From contig OX597837.1 of assembly GCA_951406725.2 (NCBI GenBank), positions 27,838,001 to 27,902,000 on the forward strand: a stretch of DNA of 64,000 bases, given 5' to 3'. Positions 45,238 through 64,000 of the stretch are shown here, in pieces. The notes beneath the pieces are model-generated. The model was not told where the DNA came from. It ran no database searches and saw only the letters and a list, made by a program, of their open reading frames with translations. Position numbers and translations under genes: made by a program. Position 1 is the stretch's first letter; every line of letters starts with the position of its first letter. This stretch comes from Octopus vulgaris (taxonomy: Eukaryota).

Positions 45238-45488
45238 CTATAGTGGGGCTCCTTTCTCGCTGATTTTCGATAAGTTAAGTTTTTTCTGTTTCCGGCTATG
45301 TAAAAAGAAAATAAAGGCAAATGCTAGAAGTGAGATGAAACGACCGACAATCATAGGAAAGAATACGACGCGTCTTAAGTTATCTAGATCATACAATTTA
45401 CAAGCCCCGCGTTCGTTACACTTCATATCCCAGAGGATACACACGGAATCGATGGCACGTCCAAATAAAACCGGCGCAGGAAGGAACG
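45238..45488 (-). CDS. OATP/SLCO organic anion transporter, last coding exon (TM11-TM12)
   Basis: ctctctcacag acceptor. AFLPAPVLFGRAIDSVCILWDMKCNERGACKLYD matches the OATP PxPxxFGxxIDxxCxxWxxxC..GxCxxYD motif; TAG at 45240-45238. Confidence 0.93.
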
Positions 45489-46717: not shown

Positions 46718-46782
46718 CACCACCAGATAAAATCATTGAGTAGAAACCAATTCCGAGGGCCTTATCTTTCTCACTTGGTGTT
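46718..46782 (-). CDS. OATP/SLCO exon (65 bp)
   Basis: ttttccag acceptor, gtaagt donor, phase 2 to 1. RTPSEKDKALGIGFYSMILSGG resembles the OATP R..xxKxLALG segment. Confidence 0.88.
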
Positions 46783-49362: not shown

Positions 49363-49517
49363 CTTATAACTAAAAGATAACCTGCTGGAATACTCGCCAT
49401 AGCTAAGATGTTATTAATAGTCGAAAGTCCTATAAATATATTTTTGGCTTGGCATTCAAAGGGACACAGACCAGCAGTTGCTGACATTCCAGGGATTCCA
49501 AAGCAGTTGGTGAAATT
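49363..49517 (-). CDS. OATP/SLCO exon (end of Kazal-like loop and TM10)
   Basis: tttttcag acceptor, gtaagt donor, 155 bp. NFTNCFGIPGMSATAGLCPFECQAKNIFIGLSTINNILAMASIPAGYLLVIR. Confidence 0.9.
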
Positions 49518-51049: not shown

Positions 51050-51185
51050 AAAATAATTTCCATCTGCACATCCAGCATGGCATGGTGAGAAATAATTCTG
51101 TTGATCGGAACCACATATAGGGAAATACTGTCGAATATCGCAGTTGCAGTCATCAATCAATTCCGTCATATTGGCATATAGGGAA
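51050..51185 (-). CDS. OATP/SLCO exon (Kazal-like extracellular domain)
   Basis: ccttttcag acceptor, gtaagt donor, 136 bp. DCNCDIRQYFPICGSDQQNYFSPCHAGC is the OATP Kazal_2 signature. Confidence 0.93.
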
Positions 51186-54583: not shown

Positions 54584-54776
54584 GAATTGTTCATGGGATT
54601 ATTGTTCAAGTGGGGTGCTTCACAGCGCAAGAAAGATATGATAATCTCCAAGCCGAGGCAGATACAATACGCAACTAACTTCATCATAATCATTCCACGT
54701 ATTTCAAGTTTCAATCGAGTAATTATGGTACAGCCAGCCAATATACCAACCAAGGAAGTTACAACTCCCATGGAAG
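54584..54776 (-). CDS. OATP/SLCO exon (TM8-TM9)
   Basis: ctcattgcag acceptor, gtaagt donor, 193 bp, phase 1 to 2. ASMGVVTSLVGILAGCTIITRLKL...SFLRC. Confidence 0.88.
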
Positions 54777-56859: not shown

Positions 56860-57920
56860 TATTTTTTAATGAGAATTTTTAAAGAAAGACGGATTAGTTC
56901 GCGAACGAAGAGGACACCATAAACCACTCCCCTGTGGCGATAAATATACAGGATTGGGTACTCCTGCCGACTTACTGTGGCAAACGTGTGGCCAGAGTAA
57001 GAATTGGCAGAATACCTCCCACCTACGAAATTAAGGAAGCATGGCTGGTAGCTGCAGTTATGCATAGAATGGTAGACGAAGCCAAAATATTGAAGATCGC
57101 AAGAACCAAAAATGTTAACGGGTGGAGTTATGGCCCTTAGATGGCCATACAAGTGAGCCTTAAAAACTTGCATGAGATCACAGAGGAGATTATTTTACCG
57201 GAAGATGTGAGACTAAGGGTGGTGGTGGAAGGCAGACCACCAACATGTTTCCTATGTGGTCAAAAAGGGCACATGAAAGCAAGGTGCCCCCAGAAGGAGG
57301 AAAGAGGCGAGGAGCAGAGGCAGCAGTGTGAAAAACAAAGAGAGAATGTAGAAGTGGCGGACGGAGAAGAAGAAACATTCACCGGCGTAAATAAGAAGAT
57401 GAGGAAGGAGTGTTTAAGCTCCCCACCGGAGAGTCAAAAAAAGATGAAGGAGACAGAGATGGAGGTGACAAGGAGCTGGTTAGGTACACCAGCAGCACCA
57501 ACATTACAAACAACAGGTAACGAGGATGCAGCAGTATCAGTGGAACACGAAATGGAAGACATAAACGTTGAAGAATTTTTAGAAAAACTAAGAGAGGAGT
57601 CAAGAACAGTGTCTCGCCCGGGCGGCCCAGGTCCGTCGATGAAACGATCACGGAGGAAGAACAAGTGGAATGTGGTCACATACGTCAAAAGCACAGCAAT
57701 TGAAAGGAAGATAACAGAATTCAAATCGGTAATACGAGTCAAGTTGCCGCCAGAGAAATGTTCGGACGACATTAAAGCAATTATAATTAACAAGGAAAGA
57801 TACGAGAAACTAAAAGAACTGTTCGGGAGTAATATAGTCCCTTTAGGGGTGGAGATAGAATTTGACGAATTGCCATCAGTCGTTGAATACGAGGATTTGA
57901 AACCATTGATGAACTGTTAA
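56860..57920 (+). mobile_element. Decayed L1/Tx1-like ORF1 (gag-like, CCHC zinc knuckle)
   Basis: VVVEGRPPTCFLCGQKGHMKARCP; in-frame TAGs at 56895 and 57138; no ORF2 follows. Confidence 0.7.
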
Positions 57921-60359: not shown

Positions 60360-60524
60360 CTAAAACGTAGTTGGTTTTCCAGACAGGAAGGAAGAATTGG
60401 TGCTCGAAGTATTTTGCCGAAAACGACCACAAGCCATTGAAACAAAACACTAGAATACAATCTCCGATTACTAAGAGAACGAAGATTGGATTGGTCACAA
60501 GGCCTTTCAGTGACGAAGGTAATT
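60360..60524 (-). CDS. OATP/SLCO exon (TM7); more 5' exons must lie beyond the window
   Basis: ttcttgcag acceptor, gtaaat donor, 165 bp. LPSSLKGLVTNPIF...FSAKYFEHQF matches the OATP LxxNPxF..PKYxExQF motifs. Confidence 0.9.
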
Positions 60525-60557
60525 CTGCAAGAAGAAAACAAAGATTATAAAAGAATG

Positions 60558-60595
<38 letters not shown>

Positions 60596-61904
60596 TTATA
60601 TTTATATAATAATTTAAGGATGGAAATTCATAGGGTTTATCATAGGTTTATCAAAGGATCACAACATGTTTCTGCACCACACACGATCATTAGATAACAA
60701 TTTCTCATATTCGTAAGATATCAGTTAAGATTACACTTAATATTTTGATATTATTATGCATATCCACGCCGCCATCTCTTCAGTAATCCGGCCATCTGAA
60801 AAATGCTATGAAAAATAATCGTTATACAAAGGTAAATTACTGTGTGATTGACCGTTATTGCGACAAAAGAGGTATTTGAATAACCGCTAAGTAAGGGGGT
60901 AAAACGTTCATAGTGTTCGCTTAAGCGCGCCTGTTCATACCAACACATGCGCACTCGCACACTCACGTGCGTGCGCCTAAAAGTATACATTCATCTACCC
61001 TCACTTGAAAACGTACACATCCTCAATCTCACCATTCGCCAAATGTATATGTATATACATACAAACCCACACATACACACACACACACGCGCGCACCATA
61101 AAGGTTCATACACACGTCTATACACGTACAAGCACAAGAAAAAACATGGCTAAGGGTAACAATACAGAAAAAGGCATAAGGGAGTATACAAAGAGTAAAC
61201 CACATTTATATAGGTACATACCCTTTCGGTGTTAGAAGGTGGAATGATCTTGCTGTCGCCTCAGGTGTCACAAGGCACAATGAGGACCGGATGAATGAAT
61301 GAATTTATGTATAAGAGTGTACTGTTCCGTCATTAGTGAGATCAGCAATAAAAAAAAAGGACTCCATGAAGCGAGCGATGAATATTATTTTCTGTACACA
61401 TTATTTAAACGTAAGCTATAATAAGTTTGAAGCCTTTTATAGTACTTTATGCGAACGGCCTTGCACAACGTGACGTATTAGAGATTACACATATTGTTTT
61501 TCGAGCCTGAAAGATGGCAGGATAGGACACAGCATGCTATACAAGCTTGTCCGGGTGTTATAATCTCAGAGTCCGAAATCTATAGTTGCTCACGTTTAAA
61601 TCCTTTGCAGGTTCAATGATGTGTATGTGTTAAGTCAGGAACGAAACAGACTCTCGTGTATTAGATAATAGAATGGGCATAATTTTTATATAGTATAATT
61701 TTTATATAGTATAATAAATAACAGTTTGTTGCCACACGGTTTCATGCTGAGAAACTTTGAAGCTGTGAAGTGGTAAATTATCAATCATCGGATGTTGCTC
61801 AAAGGAAAAGAATAATTTGGGTTCGCGCTAAAATTTTCAAATATACCATGTCTGATGATTGTTAATTTACCACTTCACAATTGCCAAATTCTTCAGCATG
61901 TTAA

Positions 61905-61962
<58 letters not shown>

Positions 61963-62193
61963 TGTGTATCTGTATGAATAATGTAAGGCAAGTGGACTAC
62001 GTCATCTCTTTAGTTTTGCTATTTCTCTTTTATTATACCTTTCATATATATATGTATATATGTGTGTGCGCGCGGGGGTGTGTGTGTGTGTGAATATACA
62101 TTTTATCACATCGTAATTAATATATGTATATGTATCCCATGTTCACTGAAAGTTTTAACATCATGTATATATATATATATATATACACACACT

Positions 62194-62285
<92 letters not shown>

Positions 62286-62290
62286 CACAT

Positions 62291-62329
<39 letters not shown>

Positions 62330-62374
62330 CATACATATATATATATATATATACATACATACATACATATATAT

Positions 62375-62444
<70 letters not shown>

Positions 62445-62504
62445 ATACATATATATATATACATACATATATATATATATACATACATATATATATATAC
62501 ATAC

Positions 62505-62688
<184 letters not shown>

Positions 62689-62729
62689 ACAAATAACTGT
62701 TTATATATACTGCATTAGCTTTCTTTCTA

Positions 62730-64000
62730 CTACATTCTATCTTGGTCATTTCCACCGGAGGTGGGAGTTGTTGGTAAACTCTTTTCTGCATAATGACGAT
62801 AATGATGACTACAGTGGGATATTCCCGGTAAAGATCCTTTTTGCAGGGCAACGAATTTGCTACCGGCTGCTCCGAAAGTAAGCACCAGCCTTTCGTGAGG
62901 CATTAGAACTGTAACATGCTTTGCTTCGTTCAAAGATGAACCATCTGTCTGTACCATCGCCGAACACATGTCTTGAAGTAGGTTTTCAGTTTGACACTCC
63001 GTGGTTTTTGTTTCAGCCACTTTTGTAGTAAAAGAAGAAAGAATGTTCTGTTGATCATCAATAAACGTTGGAATTGTAATATCAGTCTGAATATCCTTTT
63101 GATAAAATGTGACATGTTTTTCAGTTAAAATAGTCGTTTCTTCCCCTTGTTGTTGTTGTTTTCTTTCTTCTTCCTCTTCCTCCTGTTCTTGCTCTTGTTG
63201 TTCTACCCATCGTTCTTCCACGACGTCAAGTGACCATGGCGAGTCTGGAGATTGTTTTTGGCTTGAGACTGATATAGCACTTTCCAGCGCAAAGTTATTT
63301 ATAACTAATTCAACCTCTCTATCAATATCAAATTTTTCTTTGCCGTCTGCAATATCAGACCAATGAGCTCTATTCCTGAGCATCTCATCGTAAAGAGGTT
63401 GCAGTTCCTTACTCACTTGAGAAAGAAGTCTATAAACCATTGAACACACCAAATCAATAAAACCAACTTGCATTTTAGGCAATTGGTGTCTTTTCCTGCG
63501 ATCCATCATAGGCATGATATTACGAGTAAAATGGCTCTCCAAATCGCCTTGTTCGAAGAACTCAGTTGCAACTGTAATAGCAGTCTTTCTTTGAACCTCC
63601 CATGGCTTAGTAATACTTGAAAGATCAGACGCAGTCATCATCATGCAAATTAGTAAATCAATACTTTCTTGAGATGACAACGCTTGGTCATCGACTTCTA
63701 ATTTCTGTTTGAAAAGGTACCTTTTCTCAAAGTACATTAGGAGGTCCGTAGCAAGGATTGATTTCTCTATAAGTTTAAGCCCCTGCTGATATTTTTCAAC
63801 TGAGATGTTTCGTAAAATATTTGTTTCTTCATATTTTAATATCATGAGACATCGACTTATATGATGATATTCCATCACAGACGTGTTGTAAAGAATAGCA
63901 AGAGGAGATGCCGTCTTCGCTTGAAACGCATTATCACGTCCTCTATGATCAATATCATGACACAAACAAGCAATCAATAGGCAAATCCGATCAAATTCTG
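62730..64000 (-). CDS. Class I cyclic nucleotide phosphodiesterase (PDE5/6/11-like) catalytic domain plus C-terminal tail; intronless here, 5'-partial
   Basis: [42 protein letters not shown] and MQVGFID (invariant Gln) are present. The frame stays open to the window edge ([15 protein letters not shown]). Confidence 0.93.

Follow-up and report, generated by a model that had tools for sequence, protein, structure and literature searches.

The minus strand of the stretch of octopus DNA analysed here (the window, 64,000 nucleotides, G000 C24:27,838,001-27,902,000; positions above 64000 continue the window numbering past its end) carries an intact single-exon GAF-GAF-PDE gene within intron 3 of an OATP transporter gene. 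On balance, this gene is probably a DNA copy, equipped with its own promoter, of a member of an older intronless PDE cluster, and its product is probably a soluble enzyme that degrades cGMP in the male germ line. The array behind the nested gene appears to be new; the nesting itself is ordinary. We found no paper on the octopus PDE array in the literature searched, from which most subscription journals and genome-paper supplements fall outside coverage; the cluster proteins are annotated individually in NCBI.

The host OATP consists of 9 exons separated by 8 introns, all GT-AG, and its joined frame is open over 713 aa. The earlier note had recognised one of these exons and argued that the N-terminal half of the transporter must lie upstream of it, where exons 1 to 3 were indeed found. 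The coding exons and the intron of interest are:

99837-100686, minus strand: OATP exon 1, beyond the window (exons 1 to 3 located by a search for the OATP family and by tblastn queries of three OATP proteins)
80851-80937, minus strand: OATP exon 2, beyond the window
71788-72027, minus strand: OATP exon 3, beyond the window
60525-64000, minus strand: in-window part of OATP intron 3 (GT-AG, phase 1), the whole of which spans 60525-71787 (11,263 bp) and holds the PDE gene
60360-60524, minus strand: OATP exon 4, the exon named in the earlier note
54584-54776, minus strand: OATP exon 5
51050-51185, minus strand: OATP exon 6
49363-49517, minus strand: OATP exon 7
46718-46782, minus strand: OATP exon 8
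45238-45488, minus strand: OATP exon 9, coding as far as the stop codon

Since OATP exons 1 to 3 lie beyond the PDE and exon 4 before it, the whole PDE gene sits within intron 3 of a complete OATP and on the host strand, which confirms the nesting previously proposed. A single N gap occurs across the 313 kb that were joined; it is located upstream of exon 1 and none lies inside the host, so the nesting is no scaffolding artefact. Misassembly or a truncated OATP is likewise ruled out by the complete, internally gap-free host of 9 exons. An in-frame OATP-PDE fusion was also considered and rejected, as no acceptor with at least 14 pyrimidines per 20 bases was found between -460 and +400 of the PDE ATG. 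No OATP-PDE joint was seen in the runs examined, which is not proof of absence.

Several other features of the locus deserve mention. The host protein is 78% identical to that of an adjoining plus-strand OATP paralog (G000 C24:27,800,855-27,827,854), which is arranged tail to tail with it, shows the same exon layout and holds no nested PDE; tblastn detected no PDE remnant in intron 3 of this neighbour. Another OATP exon 1, whose donor is compatible in phase (G000 C24:27,975,354-27,976,206), lies 37 kb upstream, past the 100-N gap (27,941,335-27,941,434). No further exons belonging to it were found, and it may either act as an alternative first exon or mark the beginning of a third, collapsed OATP copy. 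One contig of run X1 (1,397 bases) matches OATP exon 3 between its two splice sites, then departs from the genome on both sides; because 7 of its 240 exon bases differ from the host, it may represent another allele or an unassembled paralog. Runs X11, X3 and X17 show zero cover on exon 3, which we do not count as evidence. OATP intron 4 also contains an open frame of 259 codons (window 57141-57920, plus strand) whose CCHC motif resembles a zinc knuckle and which is likely a retroelement ORF1 remnant. At L018:3461-4301, seven copies of a 120-bp unit (99% identity) form a 317-codon minus-strand open frame, possibly a piece of a LINE end.

The nested gene and its surroundings are composed of the following features:

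62730-64000, minus strand: in-window part of the single-exon PDE ORF, which continues to the ATG at 65639
63330-64000, minus strand: in-window part of the PDE catalytic domain (whole domain about aa 450-770, up to 64292)
63384-64082, minus strand: PF00233 core of the nested PDE (profile match)
about 64350-64832, minus strand: degenerate GAF-B, outside the window
about 64875-65372, minus strand: GAF-A, outside the window
62733-63329, minus strand: acidic, Gln-rich tail, about 170-200 aa shorter than in the sister genes and without a CaaX-like end
65640-66092 (453 bp), minus strand: flank 5' of the ATG common to the nested PDE and the paralogs c6 and c10, outside the window
65845-65852: CRE-like 8-mer of the nested PDE, outside the window
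68660-68961 (L018:5660-5961): partial 5' duplicate of the PDE, outside the window, in the same OATP intron
62235-62686, no strand: (AT)n array, which begins about 40 bp past the PDE stop codon

Within the window the PDE frame is open for 422 codons (62730-63998, minus strand), and it extends to an ATG at 65639 (G000 C24:27,903,639), giving 969 codons plus a stop in one exon, with no intron between ATG and stop. The in-window part matches positions 30-237 of the 238 of PF00233 (E 1.7e-64). Of the more than 420 uninterrupted codons that the earlier note had taken to span most of the catalytic domain, only some 205-223 belong to it, the other 200 or so forming a low-complexity tail. The best solved match of the nested protein is human PDE5A (PDB 9lss, 3bjc; E 2e-135, aa 79-769). 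Residues Y612, H613, H617, H653, D654, H657, E682, D764, Q775, Q817 and F820, in PDE5A numbering taken from the alignment to the human protein, are all kept, and among the 21 PDE5A positions tabulated N661 alone differs, being D in the nested PDE. The metal ligands, the general acid H613 and the invariant Gln that mark a class I PDE (PF00233) are all kept in the nested PDE, and the earlier description of an intronless PDE with intact catalytic residues proved accurate. Ahead of the catalytic domain, GAF-A retains the NK..F..DE motif of the PDE5/6/11 group. GAF-B is alignable, but its NK is gone in all 8 clade members compared, so that the second-GAF motif of that group is missing. By family, the nested PDE would be expected to hydrolyse cGMP.

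Own-genome searches revealed 11 further single-exon PDE paralogs, c1 to c11, arranged in tandem at G000 C24:28.717-28.848 Mb, i.e., 0.8-0.95 Mb from the nested gene, for a total of 12 intronless copies. Animals usually keep one gene of the Pde6 type. In this assembly, c2 has one frameshift (near 28,740,865) and c6 two (near 28,798,450 and at the 3' end), which may be assembly errors or mark young pseudogenes. LINE-type ORFs are frequent in the cluster. Phylogenetic trees of 22, 14, 67, 27 and 17 rows were computed under LG+G4 without mixture after near-identical copies had been dropped. The intronless genes form a single clade (100/100) in the 22-row tree, which was built on the catalytic region; within this clade the nested PDE pairs with O. 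bimaculoides P0003 (100/100) and this pair is sister to c6/c10 (99/99). As the single large exon is also found in the 11 paralogs, intron loss is older than the nested copy. The earlier note's reading of a retained retrogene consequently needs revision: 11 single-exon paralogs in the same genome share it, the nested copy is derived within them, and 453 bp of upstream DNA are shared as well.

The protein P0003 of O. bimaculoides is 973 aa long and bears the same C-terminal truncation as the nested PDE. In that species the record numbers of the PDE ortholog and of a neighbouring OATP are 13 apart while those of the cluster are far off, and from these numbers we infer that the ortholog is also nested in an OATP. 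The same truncation together with the OATP-adjacent record number makes it likely that the move into the OATP intron predates the O. bimaculoides split. The scaffold of an Argonauta member (c5 type) has the same length as a scaffold carrying an OATP. No squid, cuttlefish or Nautilus entries appeared, by name, among the candidates scored in the homolog searches. At the base of the intronless clade branch the ENA proteins P0075 and P0085; the latter has H657, H684, H685, Q817 and F820 changed with its CaaX-like end kept, and is a possible pseudo-enzyme. Beyond octopods, Pde6-type genes from fly, krill, starfish, priapulid and two snails entered the comparison through a full-library search. In the resulting 27-row tree, the intronless clade joins the Drosophila, krill, starfish, priapulid and gastropod Pde6-type genes at 96/99, apart from the PDE11-like genes. 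The snail genes are sister to the intronless clade in the 17-row tree (SH-aLRT 88), a position that is unsettled in the 27-row tree. The starfish gene has six annotated isoforms, and the outgroup Pde6-type genes are presumably multi-exon.

Members of the array differ at both the substrate pocket and the C-terminus. In c3 (28,747,126-28,750,203) and c9 (28,825,476-28,828,577; both on G000 C24), the invariant Gln (PDE5A Q817) is replaced by Glu, together with Y612F, Q775E and F820Y. O. sinensis P0055, P0056 and P0058 and O. bimaculoides P0094 share the Gln-to-Glu change. Because the invariant Gln is changed while the metal ligands are kept, the substrate choice of c3 and c9 may differ. Enzymes of the PDE6 type are prenylated at a CaaX motif. 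A C-x-x-x end occurs in 10 of the 11 cluster loci, as in the fly, starfish and snail genes, whereas a CaaX-like end is absent from the nested PDE and from O. bimaculoides P0003. Lacking this end, the nested PDE is predicted to be unprenylated and hence a soluble enzyme.

All 12 intronless copies carry TGACGTCA or TTACGTCA, a CRE-like 8-mer, 196-517 bp before the ATG, against a background of 16 in 1530 windows of 550 bp (850 kb of other DNA); the motif was noticed in the PDE flanks before counting and the 12 copies are related. Their flanks fall into five types, four of which do not align with the nested flank and are mutually dissimilar around the site. In mammals, CREM controls spermatid genes via such CRE sites. 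The genome also contains an array of intronless receptor guanylyl cyclases of about 1,700 aa (G000 C12:28.436-28.613 Mb, plus C18:66,713,799-66,718,859). Shared CRE-like control of the PDE and cyclase arrays was considered and found no support: the 8-mer occurs within 1 kb upstream of none of the 11 intronless cyclase starts, and guanylate cyclase activity is not enriched among testis DEGs in the O. sinensis table of PMC11202624 (22/191, 17.4 expected).

The ends of the gene bear on how it reached the OATP intron. DNA homology of the nested PDE to c6 and c10 reaches 453 bp upstream of the ATG, then stops. A genome search with this flank returned four matches, namely itself, c6, c10 and the partial copy in the same intron, and elsewhere only c6 and c10 carry it at full length. 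The derived position of the nested gene in the clade, together with these 453 bp of its sisters' upstream DNA, points to DNA duplication rather than retroposition into the intron. At the other end, the nested gene stops some 200 codons before c10 does. Its stop codon is not followed by a poly(A) tract, a weak test since old copies lose such tracts. Retrocopies made by LINEs usually retain their 3' end and lose their 5' end. The nested copy shows the opposite, a kept 5' flank and a lost 3' end, which makes DNA duplication the better reading; a retrogene formed at this site is also at odds with having the intronless c6/c10 as nearest relatives and with the failure to find a multi-exon parent. 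The partial 5' duplicate in the same intron is 93% identical to the PDE and is broken off by a repeat.

A second round of retroposition appears unlikely; by this route, an mRNA with a long 5' UTR from the c6/c10 ancestor would have been copied back into DNA in the OATP intron. The source being intronless already, the absence of introns cannot separate the two routes; the DNA shared comprises the gene and its 453-bp flank and no more, and LINE-type ORFs abound in the cluster. However, the CRE-like site that all 12 copies share is present in the nested one and probably belongs to a promoter rather than to an mRNA; the nested copy also has neither the 3' end nor a poly(A) tract.

Under the favoured reading of DNA duplication, a multi-exon Pde6-type gene of an early ancestor, octopod or coleoid, would have given rise to an intronless copy, with loss of the intron-bearing gene thereafter. 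The intronless gene would then have expanded into the 11 tandem loci now observed. An ancestor of c6/c10 with its 453 bp of upstream DNA would subsequently have been duplicated, about 0.9 Mb away, into intron 3 of one OATP paralog, a step whose place in the tree is observed and whose mechanism is presumed; this would have occurred before the O. bimaculoides split. The nested copy would next have shed its last 200 or so residues and the CaaX-like end, a loss visible in the alignment, leaving a protein predicted to be unprenylated. Its CRE-like promoter element would drive it in testis independently of the host, and the host would splice across it, as the PDE coding sequence is without introns. 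The enzyme, judging from its family, would hydrolyse cGMP, like PDE5 in sea urchin sperm.

Of 24 sequencing runs listed, six contain at least half of the gene's words: three are large, and the other three are small assemblies from a single study; none of the six is catalogued as RNA or bears a tissue label. The contigs of X11 and X13 (64-68 million letters, one study), which by size are likely RNA, cover the PDE ORF at a depth of about 280-1200 with one repeat skipped. Their cover ends about 90-190 bp before the PDE ATG while that of X12 continues further, and as X11 and X13 come from one study this end is not taken as a start site. A 28-base loose end of X13 had no match in the DNA examined.

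In O. sinensis, the accessible part of PMC11202624 describes one 'cGMP-specific PDE-like' gene with 13.93 FPKM in testis versus 0 in ovary, and its Table S7 of testis DEGs counts, without naming them, 14 PDE-annotated genes out of 28, where 2.55 were expected (p 4.1e-5). Sea urchin sperm, according to the accessible part of PMC7024835, use a GAF-A-bearing PDE5 to end cGMP signals. Taken with the CRE-like sites, these observations from related systems make testis expression and function of the nested PDE likely. A broader scenario is possible but tentative: octopods may have exchanged their sole Pde6-type gene for 12 intronless, CRE-driven genes forming a male germ-line array. Membrane-anchored forms, the c3/c9 Gln-to-Glu subfamily (three Octopus species) and one soluble form (the OATP-intron copy) would split the termination of sperm cyclic-nucleotide signals among them.

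It is quite unlikely that genes of this same origin serve a somatic tissue such as retina, kidney or gill, where they might be coupled to the host transporter. Such a role would suit the presence in the clade of P0109, a long branch which we take from its N-terminus to be vertebrate PDE6-like, as well as the action of fly Pde6 in renal tubules and of CRE sites in neurons. Against it stand the enrichment of PDE genes among O. sinensis testis DEGs and the testis-only expression, relative to ovary, of one gene bearing the family's annotation name in the same species (PMC11202624), as well as testis being the commonest expression peak of Drosophila same-strand nested genes (58% in the accessible part of PMC3814207).

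Nei-Gojobori dN/dS of the nested PDE is 0.60 against c10 (920 codons) and 0.35-0.36 against c5; a ratio of 0.6 is weak constraint, and the gene appears to be kept under modest constraint. Residues identical to those of its O. bimaculoides ortholog number 269/321 in the catalytic domain, 144/166 in GAF-A and 133/178 in the tail. We consider it improbable that the gene is a decaying duplicate, truncated and still transcribed yet with no needed function. Its lost C-terminus, the ratio of 0.6 and the broken partial copy nearby would fit decay, as would the 13 non-synonymous differences among the 17 examined in sequencing runs, some of which come from paralog contigs. On the other hand, the frame is open over 969 codons, the catalytic residues are kept, and an ortholog with the same truncation has been preserved in O. 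bimaculoides with a largely identical catalytic domain.

The origin of the intronless family itself was approached by own-genome searches with bivalve PDE11, PF00233 and a snail catalytic domain as queries, which gave 11 multi-exon PDE loci. All 11 match exon by exon only, so that the uninterrupted frame of the nested gene is no chance feature. Seven of them, with weak or no score against the snail catalytic-domain query, were left out of the trees. The multi-exon parent whose existence the earlier note had assumed was not encountered: among the best-scoring candidates of these searches in the one assembly, none was a multi-exon Pde6-type ortholog. The closest multi-exon match by similarity is locus C3, which has at least 18 coding exons, 47-83% identical to bivalve PDE11, and whose O. 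sinensis ortholog carries the label PDE11. In a sparse-taxon tree, the intronless clade joined C3 and the bivalve gene at 98/97. With Pde6-type genes included (AU tests on the 17-row tree), the sister position was rejected for C3 (p-AU 9e-6), for C3 together with the bivalve gene (p 3e-4) and for locus C17 (p-AU 9e-5). Loci C7 (PDE10-like) and C13 (the outgroup, presumably PDE2-like by motif) were ruled out as parents by the trees. Direct origin of a lone retrogene from a multi-exon PDE5/11 gene that the genome still contains, C3 or C17, is therefore very improbable and largely refuted in spite of the similarity of C3 and the sparse tree, as both candidates fail once Pde6-type genes are in the tree and the nested copy branches among eleven intronless paralogs.

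The multi-exon 'PDE11' (C3) is thus shown not to be the parent of the intronless array, and the twelve intronless copies likely replaced an ancestral intron-bearing Pde6-type gene. Since no intron-bearing ortholog of this type was found in the genome, the family looks like an expanded orphan retrogene. The array provides named candidates for the enzymes shaping cyclic-nucleotide signals in octopus sperm, and its shared candidate promoter element is testable for CREB/CREM control of spermatogenesis in a mollusc. It also offers natural variants for PDE enzymology, i.e., a form with no prenyl anchor and forms with a Gln-to-Glu change in the substrate pocket.

Four invertebrate Pde6-type genes (Drosophila biarmipes XP_016950272, Acanthaster XP_022096548, Batillaria KAK7496272 and Nucella KAL8567864), members of the same 96/99 clade as the octopus genes, share the GAF-PDE layout and the C-x-x-x end of 10 of the 11 cluster loci. 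The octopus differs from them in having 12 single-exon copies per genome, in the loss of the GAF-B motif and in a nested copy without a CaaX-like end. Human PDE5A shares its active-site residues with the nested PDE, but in the tree the PDE5-like P0093 falls on the PDE11-like side, and the human PDE5A gene is multi-exon, unlike the nested one. PMC4906994 covers vertebrate PDE6, its accessible text making no mention of an octopus-type family. The orphan retrogenes described in the accessible part of PMC3548309 are likewise intronless, their intron-bearing parent gone from the genome; those of human are under strong purifying selection with no testis bias, whereas the octopus family has 12 copies and dN/dS of about 0.35-0.6 between more distant copies. 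As a working model for the octopus family, we favour the sea urchin sperm PDE5 (PMC7024835, accessible part), a GAF-A cGMP PDE ending guanylyl-cyclase signals in the flagellum, although sea urchin sperm have one abundant PDE5 and the octopus 12 copies, the two being compared by description. Finally, the earlier note had regarded same-strand nesting as the less common orientation. Opposite-strand genes make up 71% of the nested genes of Drosophila, but single-exon genes predominate among those on the same strand (72.5%), which frequently have their expression peak in testis (PMC3814207, accessible part), so that the nested PDE represents an expected type of nesting: like them it is a single-exon duplicate in a host intron, and nothing essential differs.
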